From the IMG/VR virus record IMGVR_UViG_3300036831_000148, positions 32,001 through 96,000 of that record: a stretch of 64,000 nucleotides of DNA. One strand, given 5' to 3'. The DNA is from a virus. The notes below the pieces were generated by a model, which saw nothing but the letters and a program-made list of their open reading frames with translations, was not told where the DNA came from and ran no database searches. A program made the translations under genes and the position numbers. Below are positions 15,692-32,942 of the stretch, piece after piece (within the stretch, counting starts at the first letter, position 1; each line of letters opens with the position of its first letter).

Positions 15692-15725
15692 CAAAAAGCC
15701 CCGCCAGTCCCGGAGGACGGCGGGG
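15692..15725 (-). terminator. intrinsic terminator closing the tRNA array
   Basis: CCCCGCCGTCC...GGACTGGCGGGG followed by CTTTTTG on minus strand. Confidence 0.75.
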
Positions 15726-15845
15726 AACATTGGGGCAACTGTAGCATGATGTGGCGGGAGGCCGGTTCCGATCTCTACCCGCGAAGCCGAGTCTCGTACC
15801 CGGCCTCCCGCCTCCACACTCTCCGCAGCGCGAGCATCATGCAAG

Positions 15846-15917
15846 TGACCCGGGGAGGACTCGAACCTCCATCCTCCGCTTAGGAGACGGTAGCCCTATC
15901 CATTGGGCGACCGGGCC
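15846..15917 (-). tRNA. tRNA-Arg(CCT)
   Basis: cloverleaf, loop CTCCTAA, GGTTCGAGTCC. Confidence 0.85.
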
Positions 15918-15918
15918 G

Positions 15919-15995
15919 TGGAGGGAGAGCCGGGAGTCGAACCCGGATGTCACGTTTTGCAGACGTGCGCCTTGACGCGCCTCGGCCACACTCCC
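15919..15995 (-). tRNA. tRNA-Cys(GCA)
   Basis: loop CTGCAAA, U73, encoded CCA. Confidence 0.85.
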
Positions 15996-16085
15996 ATGGA
16001 CGGGGCTGCACCTGAGTGCGGCAGCCTGCCCCGCTTTACTGGCCCACCGCTACCCGCTGCCAGGTCGCGGCGGTGAACTCAGTCG

Positions 16086-16158
16086 TGCGCCCGAAGGGAC
16101 TCGAACCCCCGACACCCGGCTTCGGAAGCCGGCGCTCTGTCCACTGAGCTACGGGCAC
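16086..16158 (-). tRNA. tRNA-Arg(CCG)
   Basis: loop TTCCGAA. Confidence 0.9.
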
Positions 16159-16163
16159 CTGAG

Positions 16164-16246
16164 AGGCGCGTGCAGGATTCGAACCTGCGTAGGGCAGAGC
16201 CGGCTGCTTTACAGGCAGCTCCCGTTATCCGCTTGGGTAACGCGCC
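16164..16246 (-). tRNA. tRNA-Tyr(GTA)
   Basis: loop CTGTAAA, long variable arm. Confidence 0.85.
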
Positions 16247-16247
16247 G

Positions 16248-16322
16248 TGGGGTTGGTAACGAGAATCGAACTCGTATATCTGGAGCCACAGTCCAGCGCT
16301 CTGCCGTTGAGCTATACCGACC
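16248..16322 (-). tRNA. tRNA-His(GTG)
   Basis: loop CTGTGGC, G-1:C73, CCA. Confidence 0.85.
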
Positions 16323-16323
16323 G

Positions 16324-16397
16324 TGTCCAGTGAGGGATTCGAACCCCCGACGCCTGCCGTGTGGAGGCAGCGCTCTCCCGGGCTGAGCTAACCGGAC
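16324..16397 (-). tRNA. tRNA-Val(CAC)
   Basis: loop TCCACAC (C33). Confidence 0.85.
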
Positions 16398-16457
16398 ATG
16401 AAGGACGGCAGGGGGCTGAGCTCGAAGGCGGTGTCAGCCTGCTCACCCGTCGTCCAG

Positions 16458-16530
16458 TACACGCGAGAGGACTCGAACCTCCAACGCACGGCTCCGTAGG
16501 CCGCTGCTCTATCCGTTGAGCTACGCGTGC
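16458..16530 (-). tRNA. tRNA-Arg(ACG)
   Basis: loop CTACGGA. Confidence 0.9.
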
Positions 16531-16531
16531 T

Positions 16532-16606
16532 TGGTGGGCGTACCTGGTGCCGACCCAGGGACCTCGTCTGCGTCAGAGACGCGCTCTCCCGCTGAGCTAT
16601 ACGCCC
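16532..16606 (-). tRNA. tRNA-Val(GAC)
   Basis: loop CTGACGC, atypical T-loop GTCGGCA, CCA. Confidence 0.8.
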
Positions 16607-16614
16607 TCGTTCTG

Positions 16615-16642
16615 TTGACCAGCGTCAAGAGGCGGGTACCGT
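16615..16642 (+). promoter_or_regulatory. sigmaA-like promoter with TTGAC-N4-GTCAA palindrome
   Basis: TTGACC-16-TACCGT, GTG 7 nt downstream. Confidence 0.6.
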
Positions 16643-16649
16643 TAGTTAC

Positions 16650-16790
16650 GTGGCCTACCTCGTCGTCCTCGGCATCGGCATCTGGATTGGTGCCGTCGCC
16701 GGCCTCAAGTACGGTGCCCGCCGTGCCTTCACCCGGCTCGGCCGGGCCGAGCACGGCGAGCGCATGCGCCGCTCAGGGTTCGGCAGCTAG
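16650..16790 (+). CDS. small single-pass membrane peptide
   Basis: 46 aa MAYLVVLGIGIWIGAVAGLKYGARRAFTRLGRAEHGERMRRSGFGS, GC3-rich, leaderless. Confidence 0.65.
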   Translation: MAYLVVLGIGIWIGAVAGLKYGARRAFTRLGRAEHGERMRRSGFGS

Positions 16791-16863
16791 CGGTCCTGAC
16801 GGGATTTGAACCCGCGGCCCTCCGCTCGACAGGCGGACGCTCTACGCACTGAGCTACAAGACC
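16791..16863 (-). tRNA. tRNA-Asp(GTC)
   Basis: loop CTGTCGA, G73. Confidence 0.9.
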
Positions 16864-16875
16864 ATGTGTACTGCG

Positions 16876-16948
16876 CTCTCCGACCAGGACTCGAACCTGG
16901 AACCTGCTGATTAACGGTCAGTCGCGCTGCCGATTGCGCCACCGGAGA
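16876..16948 (-). tRNA. tRNA-Asn(GTT)
   Basis: loop CCGTTAA (C33), U1-A72, G73. Confidence 0.85.
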
Positions 16949-17146
16949 TCGTAAACGCCGGGGTACCGTGCCGTTCCCGGCTCCTGGTGATACTCCGCCC
17001 GCTGGACCCGGGCCAGGCTGCAGTTCCCGGCTGTATCCGGCAGGCCCAGGCCCGCCCGAGTAAGGCCCCCGGTTGTTTAGCCCTTATCCAGCAGGGCCAG
17101 CCACGTGTTCCCCGGGGCTTTCGCCGGCCGCCAGTGCCGGGCCTCG

Positions 17147-17222
17147 TAGCGGGGGCAGGATTTGAACCTGCGTATATGCCAGGCTATGAACCTGGTGAGC
17201 GACCAAACTGCTCGACCCCGCG
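17147..17222 (-). tRNA. tRNA-fMet-like (CAT)
   Basis: CGCGGGG start with C1 mismatch, loop TTCATAG. Confidence 0.8.
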
Positions 17223-17303
17223 CCGCGCGGGGCTTAACCGGACGTGACCCGGAAGCGCACCCGCTGCTTGCGCCACGGCACCAGGGTAAGTCCGGCGCCG
17301 TCG

Positions 17304-17377
17304 TAACCCCAACCGGATTCGAACCGGTGTCGCCCTGCTTGAAGGGCAGGCGTCCTGAGCCGCTAGACGATGGGGCC
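17304..17377 (-). tRNA. tRNA-Glu(TTC)
   Basis: loop CCTTCAA (C33). Confidence 0.85.
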
Positions 17378-17469
17378 GTGCGTCCTGCCGAGCGGATTTC
17401 AGCCAGCTCCCGGCGCGGACCTCAGAATCCTGCTTTGGCGTGGCCGTCTCCCGCGTAGCAGGCTCTGCG

Positions 17470-17543
17470 TGGTCCTGGCGGGATTCGAACCCGCGCTTTC
17501 CTGCTTGAGGGGCAGACGGCTTAGACCGCTAGCCGACAGGACC
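17470..17543 (-). tRNA. tRNA-Glu(CTC)
   Basis: loop CCCTCAA (C33). Confidence 0.85.
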
Positions 17544-17548
17544 ATGTG

Positions 17549-17621
17549 TGCGCCGGGGAGGTCCCGAACCCCCGCCGCGCCGCTTAGAAAACGGCCGTTC
17601 TATCCGCTGAACTACCGGCGC
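17549..17621 (-). tRNA. tRNA-Arg(TCT)
   Basis: loop TTTCTAA. Confidence 0.8.
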
Positions 17622-17625
17622 GCAG

Positions 17626-17698
17626 TGGGCCGCCCGGGACTTGAACCCGGAACACTCGGATTAAAGGTCCGCCGCTCTGCCATTTGCGCTAGCGGCCC
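17626..17698 (-). tRNA. tRNA-Lys(TTT)
   Basis: loop CCTTTAA (C33). Confidence 0.85.
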
Positions 17699-17699
17699 G

Positions 17700-17776
17700 T
17701 GGTAGCGGTAGCCGGGCTCGAACCGGCGGCCCTCCCATTATGAGTGGGACGCTCTGACCGACTGAGCTATACCGCC
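17700..17776 (-). tRNA. tRNA-Met or Ile2 (CAT)
   Basis: loop CTCATAA, CCA encoded. Confidence 0.85.
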
Positions 17777-17777
17777 G

Positions 17778-17852
17778 TAGGCTGCCGTGGAGTCGAACCA
17801 CGCTGCTAACTGCGTATCAGGCAGTCCCCGTCAACCGGCTGGGTCGCAGCCC
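17778..17852 (-). tRNA. tRNA-Ile(GAT)
   Basis: loop CTGATAC, atypical D-arm. Confidence 0.75.
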
Positions 17853-18033
17853 TCGCTTGAAACTCGACAGCAACAGTTACCGTGTGTACGCTGTCGGATG
17901 CGAGCAGTAAAAGACGCTGCTCGTAAAGGCAAGGCACCGTCACCCTCCAGGGGCGCGGCCCGTCAGGCCTTTGGCTGCATTACGGAGGCGGCGCTCGTCG
18001 GCCCACTACAGGCGCCGCCTCACGCCAGCCTCG

Positions 18034-18119
18034 CAGAGGGTTGAGGTGCCGACCCCCACGGCCCTCCCGGGCCGCCGCCTGTTTTCTAGACAGGATGTCC
18101 CGCCGGGGACGAACCCTCC
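18034..18119 (-). tRNA. tRNA-Ser(AGA), 8/4-type fold
   Basis: CCTGT-CTAGAAA-ACAGG, long V-arm, G73, acceptor GGAGGGTT/AACCCTCT. Confidence 0.7.
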
Positions 18120-18189
18120 AGGTATCCGCGGTCACCCTCGGGCAGGTGCTCGGCCAGCCCCGACACCGGCCAGGATCGCGGCATCCAGG

Positions 18190-18273
18190 CAGAGAGCGGA
18201 CGACTCGAACGCCACGGCTTGCACCGCGAGCCCGCTAGCAACGGGTCCTGGCCGCCTGGCCAGTTCACTCTCC
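18190..18273 (-). tRNA. tRNA-Ser(GCT), 8/4-type fold
   Basis: 8-bp acceptor GGAGAGTG/CGCTCTCT, 4-bp T stem, 6-bp D stem with 4-nt loop. Confidence 0.75.
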
Positions 18274-18345
18274 AGGTGCAGGACTTTTTGAAACCGGGCG
18301 CAACCCGGGGGCGTCCTGCGTGCCCTCGCCGCCTGCGCGGCCGAG

Positions 18346-18430
18346 TGGGCGGGGAGGGATTCGAACCCTCACGTCCCTCCCGGGACACACGGTCCTGAGC
18401 CGTGCGTGGCTGCCGTTACACCACTCGCCC
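18346..18430 (-). tRNA. tRNA-Leu(CAG)
   Basis: loop CTCAGGA, long V-arm. Confidence 0.9.
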
Positions 18431-18598
18431 ATGCTCCCCGGGCTGTTCTCCCTTGACTGGTCCGGGCCCGGGGGGCCGGCAGGGAGCCAGGTCGGCGCTC
18501 GCGCGCTGAGCTTCCCGGCCTCCTGCAGGAGGCCGGTCCGCCTGGAAGTGTCTGGGTGCTCCCCGGCTGCGCGTCCGCTAGCCGGCTTGCCCCCATAG

Positions 18599-18671
18599 AG
18601 CCGACGACGGGATTCGAACCCGCGGCCCTCACCTTGGCAAGGTGATGCGCTACCAACTGCGCCACGTCGAC
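18599..18671 (-). tRNA. tRNA-Gly(GCC)
   Basis: loop TTGCCAA, U73. Confidence 0.9.
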
Positions 18672-18710
18672 AAGCCGGACGGCCAGCCGCCGTCCGGGGT
18701 TCACCGGGCG

Positions 18711-18929
18711 TTAGCCGCCCTCCACAATCTCCCTGACCGAGGTCCGGGACCGGCCGGGCACCTGGATGCCGGACACCTCGCCGTCCGCCGCGGCGAACGT
18801 GAGGTGCACGGTCGTGCCCCTGAACTTCAGGGTGCACCCCACCGCCTCCGGGTGCACGCGGACCGTCAGGTCCACGTTGACGTCGCCCACTCCTACTGCG
18901 GCGGCGCCGCGGTTGCTCGTGCTGGCCAT
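18711..18929 (-). CDS. hypothetical protein
   Basis: 72 aa, TGATG coupling, SD GGAGG. Confidence 0.55.
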   Translation of the reverse strand: MASTSNRGAAAVGVGDVNVDLTVRVHPEAVGCTLKFRGTTVHLTFAAADGEVSGIQVPGRSRTSVREIVEGG

Positions 18930-19018
18930 CAGGTTGCCTCCTCCACCGTGACCGTGACCGACGCCTCAGCAGTGTTGCCTGCGGCGTCGGTCGCGGTGGC
19001 GGTAATGACCAGGTCCAC
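18929..19018 (-). CDS. 29-aa peptide duplicating part of the upstream Ig-like protein
   Basis: MDLVITATATDAAGNTAEASVTVTVEEAT; TAGTG and TGATG overlaps. Confidence 0.5.
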   Translation of the reverse strand: MDLVITATATDAAGNTAEASVTVTVEEAT

Positions 19019-19347
19019 TAGCTGGGCGGCGTCACGGTCGTGGTGAGGACCGCCGTGCCGGTGCCGTTGGACAGGGTGTTGGACTGCTCGGTGTAGGTGT
19101 CGCCGAAGGAGTCGCTCGCGGCGACGTCCATGGACTCGCTGGCCTGCTCCACCACGGTCACGTTCACCGAGGCCGCAGCCGTGTTGCCGTCGGCGTCGGT
19201 CGCGGTGGCGGAGATGACCAGGGAGACCGGGTTGGACGCGCTGTCGGCGTAGGCCGCCGTCAGGGTCAGCGTCTGGCCGGCCGTGTAGCTGTCAGCGTCA
19301 GTGGTCAGGGTCAGCGTCGGCGTGCCGGGGGCAGGGGGCGTGGTCAT
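19018..19347 (-). CDS. Ig-like beta-rich protein
   Basis: 109 aa T-rich, ISATATDADGNTAAASVNVTV; SD AGGAG and CGATTA box upstream. Confidence 0.7.
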   Translation of the reverse strand: MTTPPAPGTPTLTLTTDADSYTAGQTLTLTAAYADSASNPVSLVISATATDADGNTAAASVNVTVVEQASESMDVAASDSFGDTYTEQSNTLSNGTGTAVLTTTVTPPS

Positions 19348-19419
19348 GGGGTTCCTCTCCTGGAAAACCTGGGTCCCCACGCTAATCGCCACCAGCCCGC
19401 CGTGTCCGGCGAACGCGAG

Positions 19420-19493
19420 AGCCTCCACCCGGAGCCGAACCGGGGACCTCGCCCGTACCAAGGGCGTGCTCGTTCCAACTGAGCTATAGAGGC
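19420..19493 (-). tRNA. tRNA-Thr(GGT)
   Basis: loop TTGGTAC. Confidence 0.85.
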
Positions 19494-19535
19494 ATGCCAG
19501 GAACGCGCCTTCACGCGACAGGTGACTAATGAAGG

Positions 19536-19608
19536 CTCCGGGGGCCGGGCTCGAACCGGCGTGCCCTTGGTCCAAAGCCAAGGCGGGATGCCGTCAACCC
19601 ACCCCGGA
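19536..19608 (-). tRNA. tRNA-Gln(TTG)
   Basis: loop CTTTGGA, U1-A72, G73. Confidence 0.8.
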
Positions 19609-19613
19609 CCGAG

Positions 19614-19686
19614 CTGGGCGACAGGGACTTGAACCCTGACCCGCGGGACCATAACCCGCTGCTCTGCCGTTTTGAGCTAGCGCCCA
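19614..19686 (-). tRNA. tRNA with ATG (His) anticodon on a Gln-like body
   Basis: GCGGG-TTATGGT-CCCGC; TGGG acceptor with U1-A72, G73. Confidence 0.75.
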
Positions 19687-19689
19687 CTG

Positions 19690-19762
19690 AGCCGGTTACC
19701 GGACTCGAACCGGTCGCCCGCAGCTTACAAGGCTGCTGCTCTGCCAGGTGAGCTAAACCGGC
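19690..19762 (-). tRNA. tRNA-Thr(TGT)
   Basis: loop CTTGTAA. Confidence 0.9.
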
Positions 19763-19766
19763 AAGG

Positions 19767-19852
19767 TGTCCGGGGCGGGACTTGAACCCGCAGCGCCCGT
19801 AGCGGGCACCAGCACCTCAAGCTGGCGCGTCTGCCTATTCCGCCACCCGGAC
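19767..19852 (-). tRNA. tRNA-Leu(GAG)
   Basis: loop TTGAGGT, long V-arm. Confidence 0.9.
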
Positions 19853-19982
19853 AAAAGCGGGAGACCCGGTGACCGGACCCCGGCGCGCACCGGGGCGGCT
19901 GCCCTCGCTCCACCTGCGTGACCGCCTTGCGCGAGGCGGCTTCCGGTGGCGAGTCACCTGGGGATGCTGCACGTCTCCCTAG

Positions 19983-20050
19983 AGCCGCTGCCCGGTGCCG
20001 ACCCGGGTCGCCCGCCGTACGAAGGCGGGGCCGCAGCCGTGCGCGGCGGC
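19983..20050 (-). tRNA. compact tRNA-Thr(CGT)
   Basis: 68 nt, minimal D-arm, loop TTCGTAC, T-loop GTCGGCA. Confidence 0.65.
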
Positions 20051-20109
20051 AGGCCTCCGGGCGTTTGCCCCCGCGCAAGCGCTTACGGGGGTTATAGGCA
20101 CCGGAGGTT

Positions 20110-20187
20110 GCGGTTGCTCTGGGCCACTGAGCTACCGGACGCCCCTTCCAGGGAGACCGGGCGGGATTCGGACCCGCGACCTTCCGC
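20110..20187 (-). ncRNA. permuted anticodon-less tRNA-like module 1
   Basis: order: GCGG stem, V loop, T arm, looped acceptor, TAGCTC..GAGC D arm, CCGC. Confidence 0.65.
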
Positions 20188-20189
20188 TG

Positions 20190-20261
20190 CTGGAGTACCT
20201 GGACTCGAACCAAGACCGGCGGGTCCAGGGCCCGTCGCGCTGCCAATTACGCCATACTCCA
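20190..20261 (-). tRNA. tRNA-Gln(CTG)
   Basis: loop CCCTGGA (C33), U1-A72. Confidence 0.85.
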
Positions 20262-20360
20262 AGGCGGGAGGGCTCTTTGCTGACCCTCCGACTAACGGCC
20301 TTGCTCCCCGGCTCCCGGGGGACCGGACAGGGATTTGCAGGACGGCCCTGTCAGCCGTTG

Positions 20361-20436
20361 TAGGCGAGACGGGAATCGAACCCGCAAGAAGACGCGGGTT
20401 TTGAAGCCGCCGCATATGCCGTTCTGCTACTCGCCC
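20361..20436 (-). tRNA. tRNA-Leu(CAA) with short variable arm
   Basis: loop TTCAAAA, A73, 8-nt variable region. Confidence 0.7.
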
Positions 20437-20440
20437 GAAG

Positions 20441-20512
20441 TACCCCGCCAGGGACTCGAACCCTGACCTCACGGATTAAGAGTCCGCTGCTCTGCCATTG
20501 AGCTAACGAGGC
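20441..20512 (-). tRNA. tRNA-Lys(CTT)
   Basis: loop CTCTTAA. Confidence 0.9.
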
Positions 20513-20518
20513 TTGAAG

Positions 20519-20683
20519 CCCGGTGCCCAGCCCGCTCCCCCTGCCGTCCGGACTCGAACCGGGAGGTGCGCACCCTTGCTGGTAACCACTCGCCTGAGAC
20601 CGGGCCGCAGCCCCGCTGGCGGCCGCCAGCGGAGAGCAGGCCGGCCCCGTGCCAGCAGCAGAGGGGGCGGGCTGGGAACCGGG
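20519..20683 (-). ncRNA. long rod-like RNA carrying a tRNA T-arm
   Basis: ~25-bp terminal stem and CCGG-TTCGAGT-CCGG arm near 3' end. Confidence 0.5.
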
Positions 20684-20780
20684 AAGAACAACCCGGACCT
20701 GTTCCGGCCTCACGGCACTTATGCGAGGTGCCGTAGTCTTTTGGCCAGCCGGTTTCCGGGGGCGGTATGCATCCCGCCAG

Positions 20781-20853
20781 AGCCCCACCGGGGAATTGAA
20801 CCCCGCTAACCAGCTTGGAAGGCTGGCACATCGCCACTGAATGCTTGTAGGGC
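20781..20853 (-). tRNA. tRNA-Gly(TCC)
   Basis: loop CTTCCAA, U73. Confidence 0.85.
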
Positions 20854-21264
20854 AAGATCTACTTCCGGCCATAGCTCTCGAATGCGTGCGCGCCGGCGCG
20901 CACCAAGCCAGGGCCACACTTTCAAGGTCAGCCACTCACGGTGAGGCCGAGCCGCAACCTGCCAAATCCAGGCCGTCTTATAGCCACGAACGCTCTCCTC
21001 GCGGGTGATGCGGCCGACACCAGTCACGCTGAACAATCGCTCAACGATGTCCTCGTCCGTCATTCGAACAGCTACTACCCACCGCCCCTGTCGGTTCGGA
21101 CCACCCGTCCAGCAGCCCTCACCCTCCAAGATGCCTGCAATCCAGGCAACCTCGGGAGCAGTGACCGCCTCACGGGGGCTGCCGATGTCGGTGTAACGGC
21201 ACTTTCGGCACCGTTCCGCCGTATACCTCTTACGAGTGCCACAAGCACAAAGGTTGTACCCCAT
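20806..21264 (-). CDS. LAGLIDADG-family homing endonuclease with N-terminal Cys motif
   Basis: AWIAGILEGEGC...VRMTDEDIV.RL...TGVG; lower GC; overlaps tRNA-Gly. Confidence 0.75.
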   Translation of the reverse strand: MGYNLCACGTRKRYTAERCRKCRYTDIGSPREAVTAPEVAWIAGILEGEGCWTGGPNRQGRWVVAVRMTDEDIVERLFSVTGVGRITREESVRGYKTAWIWQVAARPHREWLTLKVWPWLGARRRARIRELWPEVDLALQAFSGDVPAFQAG

Positions 21265-21282
21265 ACCTGTGTTACGTGCAGG

Positions 21283-21355
21283 TGGTCACGGGGGCGCCCG
21301 AATCCCCGGCATGCTGCTTTTCAGGCAGCCGCTCTACCATCTGAGCTACGCGACC
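21283..21355 (-). tRNA. tRNA-Phe(GAA)
   Basis: loop CTGAAAA, imperfect T arm. Confidence 0.8.
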
Positions 21356-21475
21356 GTGGATGACAGCGCACCCAGCCCGCCCGGGGAACCCGGTACCCCG
21401 GCACGAACTCGGGACAGGCGTCCCTGCTTCGGCCGACCACCGGGTTATGCCGGCTCCTGCCTAGGCGCTGCCAAG

Positions 21476-21546
21476 TCGGGATACAGGGAGTCGAACCCCG
21501 GCTGACTGGCCCCAGACCAGGCGCGCTTCCGTTACGCAATATCCCG
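21476..21546 (-). tRNA. tRNA-Pro(TGG)
   Basis: C1-G72, A73, loop TCTGGGG (C33). Confidence 0.8.
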
Positions 21547-21548
21547 TC

Positions 21549-21615
21549 ACAGGCGTTCAGACCGCTGAACTACCAGGCCGAAGCCCTCGCCCGGAGTTGA
21601 ACCGGGATTTCCTGC
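21549..21615 (-). ncRNA. permuted anticodon-less tRNA-like module 2
   Basis: GCAGG-AAAT-CCCGG TTCAACT CCGGG-acceptor closed by cTTCGg-TA-GTTC AGCGGTCT GAAC-G-CCTGT. Confidence 0.75.
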
Positions 21616-21620
21616 TTGCG

Positions 21621-21696
21621 TCGGGCTGGGCGGATTCGAACCGCCGTCCTCCCGGCCCCCAGCCGGGCGCGCTGAGCCAAACTGCGCTACAGCCCG
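21621..21696 (-). tRNA. tRNA-Pro(GGG)
   Basis: loop CTGGGGG. Confidence 0.9.
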
Positions 21697-21818
21697 ATGT
21701 TTCGCGCGGGGTACCATCTCCCGCTCCCTGGGTCGCTAACCACTACCAGCCAGTGCCGTACGCTCACCAGCTGGCCCGGCCCGTCCGGCATGCGCCGTCA
21801 GGACCCCAGGCCCTTACG

Positions 21819-21893
21819 TCGGGGTGGGGAGATTCGAACTCCCGACCTCTACGTCCCGAACGTAGCGCGCTAGCCAAGCTGCGCCACACCCCG
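21819..21893 (-). tRNA. tRNA-Pro(CGG)
   Basis: loop TTCGGGA. Confidence 0.9.
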
Positions 21894-22005
21894 ATGGAGC
21901 CGCATGTTTTACCCAGTCCGGGCGGTTGGAGGCCCGCCGGCTCGTCAGGTTACCTTTTGCCCGGTGATCAACTCCGGAATAGGATGCCTTGCCTGGCATG
22001 CGACG

Positions 22006-22079
22006 TGGAGCTTGCGGGAATCGAACCCGCGGCCTCTGCATTGCGAGTGCAGCGCACTACCAAGCTGTGCTAAAGCCCC
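22006..22079 (-). tRNA. tRNA-Ala(CGC)
   Basis: G3:U70, loop CTCGCAA. Confidence 0.9.
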
Positions 22080-22083
22080 AGAT

Positions 22084-22219
22084 GCGGCGCTCTGCCATTG
22101 AGCTACCCGGATCAGTCAGCAGGCCGGCTGCCGGGGCGTTCCGCTACGCGTACTAGCCCGGCGCTCGGCGCCCGCTGCCTTCGCATCTCCGGGACGGGGG
22201 TCGAACCCGCGTCTCCCGC
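22084..22219 (-). ncRNA. permuted anticodon-less tRNA-like module 3 with extended acceptor hairpin
   Basis: T arm GCGGG TTCGACC CCCGT first, CCCGGA/TCCGGG stem enclosing ~75 nt, then TAGCTCAATGGCAGAGC. Confidence 0.7.
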
Positions 22220-22221
22220 CG

Positions 22222-22294
22222 TGGAGCCTAGGGGAGTCGAACCCCTGACCTTTTGCATGCCATGCAAACGCGCTACCTGCTGCGCCAAGGCCCC
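22222..22294 (-). tRNA. tRNA-Ala(GGC)
   Basis: G3:U70, loop ATGGCAT. Confidence 0.9.
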
Positions 22295-22483
22295 AGGGCG
22301 CGACAGCGGGACCGCGGTGTGAACACGGTCCCGCTGCCACGTCAGACCCCGCCGCCCGCCGAAGCGGGCAACGGGAGAACTCGCGGCGGGCTGGCAACCC
22401 GCCGCCTTACGATGCTCACGCTGTGGAGATGTCAAGGTTCGTTGACATTCACCCGCTCGGGCTCTCGCCGTCGCCGGTGGTCG

Positions 22484-22555
22484 CAAGGACGGGAGGGGTC
22501 GAACCTCCGCCACTGGTTTTGGAGACCAGCGCTCTGCCTGTTGAGCTACGTCCCT
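22484..22555 (-). tRNA. tRNA-Trp(CCA)
   Basis: loop CTCCAAA, G73; first tRNA of the array. Confidence 0.9.
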
Positions 22556-22558
22556 ATG

Positions 22559-22599
22559 AAACTGAAAAACCGCCCTGTCCGGAGCTTCCGGGGGCGGTT
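22559..22599 (-). terminator. attenuator terminator immediately before the first tRNA
   Basis: AACCGCCC-CCGGA AGC TCCGG-ACA-GGGCGGTT followed by TTTCAGTTT. Confidence 0.8.
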
Positions 22600-22620
22600 C
22601 CTGCTGGTCAGGACTAGTCC

Positions 22621-22731
22621 TTAGCCAGGAACCACCTCGCCGGGGATGAAGTTGTGCTCAGGCAGGAGCATGCTTGCGCACGGGCTGGCGTACCACCCTC
22701 GCGACTGCTGCTTTGACTGCCTGGCCATCAT
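22621..22731 (-). CDS. putative attenuator leader peptide
   Basis: MMARQSKQQSRGWYASPCASMLLPEHNFIPGEVVPG; SD AGGGAG; last codons overlap the antiterminator strand. Confidence 0.7.
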   Translation of the reverse strand: MMARQSKQQSRGWYASPCASMLLPEHNFIPGEVVPG

Positions 22732-22774
22732 GCTCCCTAACGTATCCGCTGCGGCCCGCCCGGGCCACTCTTTA

Positions 22775-22803
22775 AAGGTACTACCTTGCTTGACTGTTGT
22801 CAA
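22775..22803 (-). promoter_or_regulatory. sigmaA-type promoter for leader/tRNA array with operator palindrome
   Basis: TTGACA-17-TACCTT; CTTGAC-N4-GTCAAG over the -35 box. Confidence 0.75.
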
Positions 22804-22821
22804 GCTATTTACCGGGGAAGT

Positions 22822-22852
22822 TCGCGGGACCCGGCCCTACCGGGTCCCGCGA
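22822..22852. terminator. 13-bp perfect hairpin after gntR
   Basis: TCGCGGGACCCGG/CCGGGTCCCGCGA. Confidence 0.55.
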
Positions 22853-22872
22853 CCCCTCTTCCGACAGGCACC

Positions 22873-22901
22873 ACCGTACTACCCCTCTTGACTGCTGTCA
22901 A
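22873..22901 (-). promoter_or_regulatory. second sigmaA-type promoter with operator palindrome
   Basis: TTGACA-17-TACGGT; near direct repeat of 22775-22803. Confidence 0.7.
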
Positions 22902-23364
22902 ACATACTGCCCAGCCCGCCGGAGGCCACGCCGCCGCGGTCGGCGTCCACCGCCCGGCGGACCAGCGGGTGCATGACCGCCAGGATCTCCACCGGCCCGG
23001 CCCGGCACACCCGGACTGCCGCCTGCGCGTCGGCGAACCGCCCCGCCGGCTCCCCGACCCGGGCGGCGAGCTCGGCCAGCGACCGCTCCCAGTCCGCCTC
23101 ACCCAGCCCGGCCACGTGCGCCATCAGCTTCTCGAACGGCATCGCCGGGCGGGTCACCCGGACGAAGGTACCCGCCCCCTGGCGGGCCTCGGCCAGCCCC
23201 TCGCGGACGATCACGTCCAGCGCCTTGCGGGCGGTCGCCCGGGCGACCCCGTACGACATCATCAGGTCGTTCTCGCCGGGCAGCCGGCTCCCGGGCGGGA
23301 AGGTGCCCGCGGCGATGCCGGTACGCAGGTCGGCGGCGATCAGGGGGTACCTGGGGCGCTCCAC
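22879..23364 (-). CDS. GntR-family winged-HTH regulator
   Basis: PRYPLIAADLRTGI..GTFPPGSRLPGE.DLM..YGVARATARKAL..EGL...QGAGTFV; TACGCT 7 nt upstream of GTG 23364. Confidence 0.85.
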   Translation of the reverse strand: MERPRYPLIAADLRTGIAAGTFPPGSRLPGENDLMMSYGVARATARKALDVIVREGLAEARQGAGTFVRVTRPAMPFEKLMAHVAGLGEADWERSLAELAARVGEPAGRFADAQAAVRVCRAGPVEILAVMHPLVRRAVDADRGGVASGGLGSMFDSSQEG

Positions 23365-23524: not shown

Positions 23525-25489
23525 TCACTGCGCGTAGTCCCCGCTGACGCTGCCCCAGTCGTCCAGGTAGCTGGACCCGTACTCGAAGCCCGGCCGGTCA
23601 CCGGGCAGGAACTGGTCGGGACCGAGCATCACCAGCGTCCCCGGCATTCCCGCGGGCGAGGGGATGTCCGCCTCCGGCCCGTAGAACGAGACCTGGCCGG
23701 GATAGGCGCGCTTGCCGTTCGGGTCCTCCTGGCCCCCGGCCTCCAGCGCGCCGCAGGCCGCGCCGGCGAGGGAGTCGGCCTCGTCCTTGGACGAGTCGCC
23801 CAGGTGGTCGATCTTGCCGTTCGGCAGCCGGGACAGGCCGAGCAGCTCCACCACGGTCAGCTCCCGGGCCGGCATCTGCAGCCTGCCCTCGTACATGAGG
23901 TCGCGCAGGGTGCGCCAGCCCTCCTCCGACACGTCGGTGGAGAACCGGTCGGTCTCGATGCCGTGGCTCTCCAGGATCTGCATGCTGTCCTTGGACTGCC
24001 ACTGGTCAAAGGTGAAGCGGACCACCGGGAAACCCATCCGGCGCAGCTCCAGGCACAGCATCCGCGCCCAGCGGATCTGGATCTCCATCGGCGGCACCGC
24101 GCCGGGGCTGGACTCGTAGCTGATGGTGAAGTCCACCTTCACCACCGGGCGGCGCTCCTGGACCTGGATCTCCAGGCCGTCCTCGTCGTAGCCGGTCAGG
24201 GCGTGATCCTGCCAGCGCTTGACGTGGGCCATCGACACGCCGGCCCGGTCGCCGGTGGCCGCCAGGTCGGCGTGCATCGCGTACAGCGCGCCCTTCACCG
24301 GGAACAGCTCAGGGCTGAAGGTGTACTGCGGCTTCCAGGTGGCGCCCTCGCGCACGTAGGAGACGCTCACCGGCGGCATGACGTACTCGGTCAGGCAGTC
24401 GCGGATCGCCGCCTCGTTGGCGAAGTACGGGTTGATGGCGCGCCGCGGGCGGCACTCGTACTTGGCCTCCGCCAGCGCCGGGTCCTTCTCGTAGTCCTCG
24501 GCGAACGACTCCTTGCCCTTGATCCGCGGGTTCGCCTCCCAGGTGGCGAGCGGCCCGGACACGTAGTAGCGGCTGGCCTCGCCCTTGGCCTCGTTGTCGG
24601 CCTTGCCCTTCGCCACCAGTTGCTGGATGGTGCTGCCCAGGTAGCGCGGGTAGGAGATGTGGACGTTCTTGAACGTCTCCGGGAACCGCGTAGTGGCGCT
24701 GGTCCGGATCATGTCCAGGATCGCCTCGGCCGAACTGGAGGACTCGCGCTGCTTGGCCCCGCCTGACTTGGCGAGCTCGGCGGCCGAGCGGAACGCGTCG
24801 ATCTCGTCGGCGATCCCCAGGATCAGGTTCAGCCCCTCCTGGCTGTCGGCGTCGCTGTGCCCGGAGACCGCCTCGATGTTGTGCTCGAACCGGATGGTGT
24901 CCAGCAGCGCGGTGGTCCGCTCGCCGCGGCTGCCCCGGCGCTGCCGCTCGGCGGCGTCCAGGATGTCCACGCCCTGGCGCTGGAACCAGCAGCCGGGCCG
25001 GCCGACGGCGCGGCGCATGGGGGCGAAGAACGCGCGCTGCGCCTGCTTCGAAGATGATGCGACGTTCAGGACGTGGATCGAATCCTGCTCGGGCATCCGG
25101 TAGTAAAGCTGCGGACTCTTCAGGCACAGCAGCAGGTAGCAGACCCGCATGGCGATCATCCGGCAGGTGTGGTCCTTGCCTCCGCCCTTGCCCCACTCCA
25201 GCTCCAGGAAGTTGACCATCCTGGTCGGCTGGCTCCAGTAGTCCCGGACCTTCCGCTCGGCGCTGCCCGCCAGCAGGGCGTAGGTGTCCAGGTAGTAGAC
25301 CCGCTCGGCGTGCCGCACCGCCTCGTACTGGACGTCGCTCAGCGGCGGGTTCGCCAGGTAGGCGCGGTCCTGCACGAACACGTCAAGCGGGACCGGCTCC
25401 TCCTCGAAGATGCTGGTCCCGCTTACGGAGGTGCCAGTGCCGCCGACCGCCCCGAGCAGGGCCGCCGCGGCAGCGCCGGCTGACGCCAC
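23525..25489 (-). CDS. terL: terminase large subunit
   Basis: Walker A WGKGGGKD, Walker B IADEID, RNaseH-type HADLA/FDQWQS/KDEADS. Confidence 0.85.
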   Translation of the reverse strand: MASAGAAAAALLGAVGGTGTSVSGTSIFEEEPVPLDVFVQDRAYLANPPLSDVQYEAVRHAERVYYLDTYALLAGSAERKVRDYWSQPTRMVNFLELEWGKGGGKDHTCRMIAMRVCYLLLCLKSPQLYYRMPEQDSIHVLNVASSSKQAQRAFFAPMRRAVGRPGCWFQRQGVDILDAAERQRRGSRGERTTALLDTIRFEHNIEAVSGHSDADSQEGLNLILGIADEIDAFRSAAELAKSGGAKQRESSSSAEAILDMIRTSATTRFPETFKNVHISYPRYLGSTIQQLVAKGKADNEAKGEASRYYVSGPLATWEANPRIKGKESFAEDYEKDPALAEAKYECRPRRAINPYFANEAAIRDCLTEYVMPPVSVSYVREGATWKPQYTFSPELFPVKGALYAMHADLAATGDRAGVSMAHVKRWQDHALTGYDEDGLEIQVQERRPVVKVDFTISYESSPGAVPPMEIQIRWARMLCLELRRMGFPVVRFTFDQWQSKDSMQILESHGIETDRFSTDVSEEGWRTLRDLMYEGRLQMPARELTVVELLGLSRLPNGKIDHLGDSSKDEADSLAGAACGALEAGGQEDPNGKRAYPGQVSFYGPEADIPSPAGMPGTLVMLGPDQFLPGDRPGFEYGSSYLDDWGSVSGDYAQ

Positions 25490-31790: not shown

Positions 31791-32942
31791 TTATCTCCCC
31801 AGTGCGGTCCTCATGAAGTCCAGGGAGGCAGGCTGCCCTCCCCCCGCTGCGATCGGCGCGGGCACCGCAGGCGGCGGGCACAGCGCCTTGCCCACCTGCG
31901 ACAGGGCTAGCTGCAGGCAGGCCCGGCGGTCCTCAATCCGGACCCGGGCGTGCAGGTCCCACAGCACCGTCATGGCCCCCAGCACCCGGGCCGGGCCCAG
32001 CCGGGCGGCGAGCGCCTTGCGGGCCTCCAGTGCCTCTCCCTGGGCGGTCACCGGCCCGCCGCAGCACAGCACCTGCAGGTCGGCCAGGCAGCGGACCAGC
32101 TCCCGGGTGACGTGCCCGGGGTCCCCGTAGGCGGCGAGCGCGGCGTCCATCGCGGCGTACATGGCGGCGGCGTCGCCGTCGGCGGTGGCCAGCAGCAGGC
32201 CGGGGGCGAAGTCGGTCTCCCCGGTCAGCTCCTGCCACGCCTCCAGGCTGTGCACGTCCACGGACGCCACCTGGTCCAGTCGCACCACCGCGTCGCGCAT
32301 CGCCCCCTGCGCGGCCTCGGCGATAGCGGCGACCAGGGCCGGCTCGGTGGCCAGTCCCTCCAGCCGGCAGATCTCCGCCAGCCGGCCGGCTACCTGCTCA
32401 GTGGTGAGCGGGTCGAACTTGAACGGGCTGGACCGGCTCTGGATGGTGGCCGGGACCGACTTCACCTGAGTGGTGATGAGGATGAACACCGTGCCCGGCG
32501 GCGGCTCCTCCAGGATCTTGAGCAGCGCCTCGAACGCGGCAGCGGACAGGCCGTGCGCCTCGTCGATGATGTACACCCGGTAACTGCCGGCGAGGGTGCC
32601 GTACTGGGCGCTCTCCCGCACCCGGCGGATCTGCTCCACGTTGCCGTTGCTAGCCGCGTCGATCTCGGTCACGTCCGGGCTGGCGTCGGCGTCGATCGCC
32701 CGGCAGGAGGCGCACTGGCCGCACGGCCAGGACCCGGCCGGGCCGGGCGGCGCGGCGCAGTTGAGCGCCTTCGCGACGATCCGCGCCATGGTGGTCTTGC
32801 CGCTGCCGTGCTTGCCGTGCAGCAGCAGGCAGCCGGGCACCGTGCCACGGCGGCACATCCGGAACAGCACCGCCACCGACGGCCGCTGCCCCACCACGTC
32901 ACCGAACGTGCGCGGCCGGTACTTCAGGGCAAGGTTGCTCAC
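31791..32942 (-). CDS. dnaX: DNA polymerase III clamp loader gamma/tau
   Basis: LKYRP.TF.DVVGQ, GKHGSGKTT, Zn module, EIDAASN, IIDEAH, LLKILEEPP. Confidence 0.9.
   Translation of the reverse strand: MSNLALKYRPRTFGDVVGQRPSVAVLFRMCRRGTVPGCLLLHGKHGSGKTTMARIVAKALNCAAPPGPAGSWPCGQCASCRAIDADASPDVTEIDAASNGNVEQIRRVRESAQYGTLAGSYRVYIIDEAHGLSAAAFEALLKILEEPPPGTVFILITTQVKSVPATIQSRSSPFKFDPLTTEQVAGRLAEICRLEGLATEPALVAAIAEAAQGAMRDAVVRLDQVASVDVHSLEAWQELTGETDFAPGLLLATADGDAAAMYAAMDAALAAYGDPGHVTRELVRCLADLQVLCCGGPVTAQGEALEARKALAARLGPARVLGAMTVLWDLHARVRIEDRRACLQLALSQVGKALCPPPAVPAPIAAGGGQPASLDFMRTALGR

Follow-up and report, generated by a model that had tools for sequence, protein, structure and literature searches.

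A conserved leader of broad codon content, predicted to act as a ribosome-coupled attenuator, precedes the tRNA array of an uncultured soil actinophage

Ribosome-mediated transcription attenuation is, as judged from sequence comparison, probably applied to a tRNA array in an uncultured soil actinophage, where the arrangement is real, conserved and under selection. We consider it likely, from the sequences and from folding models, that the leader is a transcription attenuator of the whiB7 type, in which a broad sample of decoding by the ribosome gates the tRNA genes downstream. A preliminary description of this DNA had proposed that the leader samples almost the whole tRNA pool and gates the array; a ribosome-coupled, broad-sampling attenuator is indeed supported by conservation, frame-preserving indels, covariation, a simulated ribosome walk and residue turnover. 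It is an open question why phages have large sets of tRNAs; a leading idea is that they replace damaged or depleted host tRNAs. If our reading is true, such a cis-acting switch, opening the array only upon failure of decoding, would count directly as evidence that phage tRNAs serve as an on-demand repair kit; it would also extend leader-peptide attenuation to tRNA genes and offer a compact natural sensor of decoding stress.

The window, by which we mean the whole stretch of 64,000 nucleotides analysed, covers positions 32,001 to 96,000 of IMG/VR record IMGVR_UViG_3300036831_000148 (146,268 bp, 71% GC, with a terminal repeat). The host is probably an actinobacterium, since the nearest cultured phages by terminase (23525-25489) are Microbacterium phage Magritte (46%) and Streptomyces phages. 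A terminase search of genome contigs found no prophage relative, and neither a tyrosine integrase nor a serine recombinase was found in the phage genome. The features are collected in Table 1. Where 38 tRNAs had been described, ARAGORN called 37, and the 38th is a degenerate Thr(CGT) (19984-20052) seen with relaxed scoring only; the first tRNA does start at 22555 and is tRNA-Trp. Besides Arg ACG, A34 anticodons occur in two tRNAs, Ser AGA and His ATG (18033-18119 and 19613-19686, minus strand). Two protein-coding ORFs without a Pfam match lie within the array (21264-20806 and 19347-19018, minus strand), the first being homing endonuclease-like by eye; in L001 (12500-12900), an ORF that is HNH-like by eye sits between the terminator and tRNA-Trp. 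The array also holds three permuted tRNA-like elements (22220-22082, 21617-21548 and 20201-20092, minus strand), in which the T arm precedes the D arm and the anticodon loop is absent, and similar elements occur in L001 and L003. Weak YrlA matches were obtained at 20092-20201 (E 5e-4, below gathering) and 22062-22230, and no Ro60/TROVE or RtcB protein was found in the phage genome.

Table 1. Coordinates of the leader, its promoters and the tRNA array in the window
Feature	Position	Strand	Details
Distal promoter P1	22873..22901	-	TTGACA-17-TACGGT; TTGAC-N4-GTCAA palindrome over -35
Distal promoter P2	22775..22803	-	-35 TTGACA 22803-22798, -10 TACCTT 22780-22775; same palindrome over -35; equivalent in 12 relatives
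Proximal promoter P3	22739..22776	-	AT hexamer 22776-22771, 3 bp, -35 TGGCCC, 17 bp, -10 TACGTT (22744-22739)
SD-like AGGGAG	22733..22738	-	spaced for second ATG (22728)
Leader ORF	22621..22731	-	36 codons, 18 residue types; sensing zone, codons ~2-29 (predicted)
Intra-ORF hairpin	22667..22712	-	compatible with antiterminator; z -2.9 vs codon-order shuffles
Antiterminator 5' strand (last codons of ORF)	22626..22636	-	11 bp, one G-U
Shared strand (antiterminator 3' strand and terminator 5' arm)	22593..22603	-	
Intrinsic terminator (outer stem, inner hairpin, U-tract)	22559..22600	-	stem 22600-22567, U-tract to 22559; -22.6 kcal/mol
tRNA array, beginning with tRNA-Trp	15845..22555	-	37 genes and degenerate Thr(CGT); all 20 amino acids; gene order same in relatives
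rrn-leader-like element after tRNA-Trp	22411..22482	-	GNRA-type hairpin, then boxA-like motif
3' arm of long-range stem, closing array after last tRNA	15820..15838	-	-47 kcal/mol
Terminator closing array	15693..15725	-	

The structural core of the preliminary description was confirmed. The 36-codon ORF (22731-22621), the terminator with its U-tract (22599-22559) and the 11-bp pairing of the ORF end with the terminator 5' arm were all recovered; this duplex is stronger than those of shuffled ORF ends (p = 0.017), the antiterminator duplex likewise outdoes shuffles in 15 of the 16 leaders tested, and the fold of the leader region is better than that of 200 shuffled sequences (z -3.1). The two hairpins are mutually exclusive, as had been stated. 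When a ribosome footprint was masked at each codon in turn and the fold was recomputed (the ribosome walk), the antiterminator kept a probability of ~0.9 up to codon ~29 and was mostly near 0 from codon ~30 to the stop, where the leader end is masked. The same switch at codon ~29-30 was found in 17 of 18 leaders; homologue L006 has no antiterminator in the model. Without a ribosome, the nascent RNA forms the antiterminator (probability 1.0); at full length, the equilibrium of the naked RNA mostly favours the terminator (0.81 in the window), so that control must be kinetic. A stable intra-ORF hairpin, possibly a pause or protector hairpin, reaches z <= -2 against codon-order shuffles in 14/18 leaders while its loop and sequence vary freely; these values come from per-sequence folds, and RNAalifold gives a 3-bp core only because the lengths vary. 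U-tracts are weaker in some relatives, and weak U-tracts are tolerated by the mycobacterial polymerase (PMC3993855). The leader peptide has no match in Pfam and is not on record as a called gene; Rfam holds no family for the leader, and within 22300-23000 only tRNA-Trp scores, so that there is no T-box or riboswitch match.

Codon-diverse leaders with covarying antiterminator and terminator were found upstream of related arrays, as the preliminary description had anticipated, the cassette recurring in 20 further phage sequences as well as in Propionibacteriaceae genomes. Searches with the terminase and with downstream motifs yielded 17 further distinct leaders, each with the order ORF, antiterminator, terminator and tRNA-Trp before a syntenic array; they have 28-38 codons, are always open and end 20-26 nt from the terminator core. 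A terminator-pattern search added three phage leaders, with 18, 19 and 18 residue types, as well as two of 17 types from Propionibacteriaceae genomes, and a further two (17 and 19 types) came from a DNA search of related bacterial genomes; these serve as an out-of-sample check because composition was not a search criterion. Over the wider set, leaders have 28-48 codons, their frame is never interrupted, and 20-28 nt separate the stop codon from the terminator core. The outer stem of the terminator is paired in 97.5% and the antiterminator in 91.5% of cells, both with changes on the two sides; values as high came up in 1/500 and 0/500 shuffles, respectively, relatedness being ignored in both comparisons. 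During leader evolution, indels keep the frame and the stems stay paired while the peptide changes: across clades, peptides can be aligned only at the end that forms the antiterminator, and some motifs recur within clades. In L010, which has a terminase 85% identical, the array is absent and the leader is also absent at that locus. A covariance model (R1) recovered the window copy only and missed known divergent homologues, and the gaps examined in the cultured phages Boopy, TunaTartare, A3Wally and Atuin held no clear equivalent. In Propionibacteriaceae, the cassette heads small, partly degenerate tRNA arrays (L153:6150-6560, L155:3300-3720 and L167-L169), and those in L153 and L155 adjoin housekeeping-like genes and a tRNA-Leu. 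L008 (12720-16342) combines a reduced array of 15-16 tRNAs with a damaged tRNA-Trp, a weak U-tract and no long-range stem, and its leader is intact.

The breadth of the leader had been the most striking element of the preliminary description, and its counts of 18 amino acids and 27 codons, with Asp and Thr absent, are right, but breadth is hardly evident from the window leader alone. Eighteen residue types correspond to p = 0.05 against phage gene windows and p = 0.025 against shuffled ORFs, and are reached by 3 of 26 real N-termini; 27 codons correspond to p = 0.005 against phage gene windows and p = 0.57, which is chance level, against nucleotide-shuffled ORFs. Comparison across the family shows selection on its leaders that favours a breadth of residues together with rare A-ending and AGG codons. 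Cys, Trp, Phe, His, Asn, Ile and Lys occur in all nine well-aligned leaders, with Cys occupying three columns, Trp two, Phe five and His five, and the loss of a rare residue at one site is repeatedly paired with a gain elsewhere. When columns were shuffled, this well-aligned clade had 19.11 residue types against 17.83 (p = 0.0002, phylogeny ignored and alignment-dependent) and 4.56 against 2.68 single-copy C/W/F/Y/H (p = 0.0002, phylogeny ignored), and all 18 leaders had 18.33 against 16.18 types; since permutation of this kind takes no account of phylogeny and is sensitive to the alignment, the p-values overstate what are few independent events. Among the 18 leaders, CGA, AGG and GAA are each retained in 16, TCA in 15 and GCA in 13, against a genomic use of 2-10%. 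A-ending codons number 74 against 11.5 expected (6.4-fold) and T-ending codons 21 against 18.4; an A-ending excess, 2.4-fold, is also present at real phage N-termini, and the leader A's are mostly unpaired. This codon pattern fits a sampling of distinct decoders. Each leader has 15-20 residue types with the rare ones in single copy, rather than the amino-acid runs of trp, his and ilv leaders, and the window leader has 3 Ala in its 36 codons.

What the leader can sense has limits. Its last seven codons lie inside or next to the antiterminator, and consequently Asp, Thr and Val would not be sensed in the window, where the sensing zone lacks a codon for 9 of 36 array anticodons. The earlier idea that loss of nearly any tRNA is the trigger must thus be narrowed: these three amino acids are blind spots here, and tRNA loss and other causes of slow translation look alike in the sequence. 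It had also been suggested that the missing Asp and Thr codons sit in frame just upstream. We rejected this, because those codons overlap the P3 -10 hexamer, have no in-frame start after the P2 start site and are not conserved, the region carrying an in-frame stop in four relatives. We also examined the leader as a roster of the anticodons of its own array and rejected it, as its own leader fits an array no better than foreign ones do (mean difference -0.003, so no leader-array matching) and the conserved TCA and GCA codons are unreadable by the array in 9/10 and 8/10 cases, respectively. L008 has a 19-residue leader before an apparently decaying array for 8 amino acids. The leader would gauge the decoding of the cell broadly and is not an array roster.

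Three candidate promoters precede the ORF. The promoter TTGACA-17-TACCTT of the preliminary description was found at its place and is P2. The SD AGGGAG is likewise present, but its distance is only 1 nt to the first ATG and 4 nt to the second. The predicted start of P3 is the A of the first ATG, that is, leaderless, with the -10 hexamer 7 nt before that ATG, and in the window its AT tract overlaps the -10 of P2. This layout recurs in all 18 tabulated leaders, with the -10 lying 6-7 nt ahead of the first start codon and a weak -35 that usually has an AT-rich tract 3 bp above it. In promoters activated by WblC/WhiB7, an AT-rich hexamer stands 3 bp before a TKGM-type -35, followed by a 16-19 bp spacer and a TANNNT -10, and the WblC regulon contains six tRNA genes (PMC7157823, PMC10727445). 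P3 partly resembles them in this hexamer/-35/spacer/-10 anatomy, and the best fit over spacings gave a hexamer with >=4 A/T in 13, TKGM in 14 and TANNNT in 15 of the 18 leaders; it differs in that the literal GAAAWY is found in only a few, and no WhiB protein is encoded in the phage genome. Activation of P3 by host WhiB7/WblC is therefore a tentative proposal from promoter anatomy, to which we give somewhat less than even weight. Two related phages, L156 (G005) and L157 (G001), encode a WhiB-family protein, that of L156 lacking an obvious AT-hook. Codon 2 is ATG or GTG in 13/13 leaders with a distal promoter against 1/7 without one, possibly reflecting few independent events, as would be expected if codon 1 served leaderless and codon 2 SD-led initiation. 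A promoter/terminator scanner called neither promoter nor the bulged leader terminator. About 30 TTGAC-N4-GTCAA palindromes occur genome-wide, nearly all overlapping the -35 of minus-strand promoters; those in the window are at 22888-22901, 22790-22803 and 16615-16628, the last reading as a plus-strand (antisense) promoter inside the array. A purine-rich word (GGCAGGCA-like) recurs before start codons downstream of operator promoters, many of them of small genes outside the window. A GntR wHTH domain (PF00392) is fused to a small ORF (23364-22879, minus strand) that ends inside P1, and relatives have this ORF without the HTH.

Beyond the terminator, the array resembles an rrn operon. The boxA-like motif (22436-22411) is also the 5' arm of the long-range stem, and this stem is the best duplex site of the whole array and was found in 9/10 arrays. 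In relatives, the motif is nearly identical to one found in 35 of the 41 genomes sampled around a Propionibacteriaceae host, where it lies 190-260 nt before 16S in 6/6 genomes checked. The likeness to an rrn leader thus consists of a near-copy, in relatives, of a motif found upstream of 16S, and of a complement that closes the transcript; the difference is that the phage element encloses tRNAs rather than rRNA, and the window copy is more diverged. The motif upstream of 16S is putatively the functional boxA (PMC10218544). Because the long-range stem spans the array, the array is probably made as a single rrn-like transcript, with a precursor of ~6.9 kb. Between the U-tract and tRNA-Trp there is no room for a promoter, which, if there is one transcript, implies that the array is entered through the attenuator.

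We propose the following mechanism, in which the switch point is predicted by folding, and translation, termination and induction are inferred. Transcription from P3 would give a leaderless RNA read from the first ATG, and transcription from the operator-bearing P1 or P2 an RNA read SD-led from the second. A ribosome keeping pace to codon ~30 or the stop would cover the antiterminator strand, the terminator would fold and the RNA would end near 22560-22565. If the ribosome stalled anywhere in codons ~2-29, or was not loaded, the antiterminator would form first on the nascent RNA and presumably be kinetically trapped, and polymerase would enter the array and transcribe it as one ~6.9-kb rrn-like precursor. 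Anticodon nucleases, starvation and ribosome-targeting drugs may be the triggers, and transcription of the array probably occurs mainly during slow decoding by ribosomes. An extended, three-layer circuit is also conceivable, in which host WhiB7/WblC activates the leaderless promoter, the all-amino-acid leader confirms failing decoding (caused, for example, by an anticodon nuclease) and the rrn mimic carries polymerase through the array, the cassette having moved into Propionibacteriaceae chromosomes; taken as a whole, we regard this as rather doubtful.

Other explanations of the leader were weighed against a broad-sampling attenuator. The switch might couple to translation with incidental codon content and so report ribosome availability or ribosome-targeting drugs only, a reading that agrees with the nascent antiterminator of the ribosome-free RNA, with the lack of a match between leader and array anticodons and with the borderline composition of the window leader itself. 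We nevertheless judge it unlikely, because single-copy rare residues persist while shifting position, particular rare codons are retained where the RNA is unpaired and out-of-sample leaders again have 17-19 residue types. It is quite improbable that a phage or host protein, or Nus factors, acting on the intra-ORF hairpin or the leader set the switch and translation is secondary: the hairpin is conserved (z <= -2 in 14/18) and an rrn-like antitermination motif is nearby, but the loop and sequence of the hairpin vary freely, the boxA-like motif lies downstream of the terminator, and it is the frame, stop position and double start that are conserved.

A slightly smaller chance still is given to the ORF being a functional small protein, or the RNA an sRNA, ended by a leaky constitutive terminator, with the array reached by unregulated read-through. 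That the terminator is the equilibrium fold and that some peptide motifs recur within clades would suit such a product; the peptides, however, are unalignable across clades except at the antiterminator-forming end, matches in Pfam and Rfam are lacking, and the antiterminator covaries. Finally, the 27 codons are what a shuffled ORF gives, as a chance ORF with chance pairing in GC-rich DNA would predict, but more than 20 divergent sequences conserve the cassette with covariation, which leaves coincidence a negligible probability.

The attenuator that we favour can be compared with several known systems. In trp, an untranslated leader terminates, whereas the untranslated phage leader would read through in our model. 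Like the trp, his, thr and ilv leaders, including M. tuberculosis ilvB1 (PMC13236596) and the Corynebacterium ilvB uORF (PMC11109978), the phage leader is a short ORF whose end overlaps an antiterminator competing with an intrinsic terminator; those leaders, however, contain runs of one to three amino acids and regulate enzymes of biosynthesis, whereas tRNA genes are controlled here. The preliminary description had rightly set the leader apart from trp and ilv leaders, but it had overlooked that many amino acids are already sensed by the whiB7 uORF (PMC10274678). Our literature searches, in which subscription journals were thinly covered, found no paper on an attenuator of tRNA genes. A long, normally silent tRNA array, the Anabaena trn operon (L-array), is induced by translational stress (PMC8421152), and its repressor is TrcR (PMC10272220). 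Both arrays would thus be induced when translation is impaired, which was observed in Anabaena and is inferred for the phage; the trn operon differs in being controlled by repressor sites at its promoter, and the words "attenuation" and "leader" are absent from PMC8421152.

The closest parallel is the whiB7/wblC uORF, whose translation favours a Rho-independent terminator and whose stalled or lost translation favours an antiterminator (PMC10274678, PMC11550727). In M. smegmatis, this uORF encodes 19 amino acids, each of which is sensed (PMC10274678), and the response to Trp or His is lost once those codons are removed (PMC10274678, PMC11550727); whiB7 is also the most induced transcript after VapC5 cuts tRNA (PMC10287673). 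The phage leader shares a broad-composition ORF and, in its nascent-RNA fold, an untranslated state that favours the antiterminator. It differs in length and content, the whiB7 uORF being described as longer and Ala-enriched and the phage leaders having 28-48 codons with about one copy of each rare residue, and in its target, which is a transcription factor for whiB7 and tRNA genes, with tRNA-Trp directly downstream, for the phage. Because of this target and the lack of Ala enrichment, we do not count the phage leader as a member of the whiB7-uORF family.
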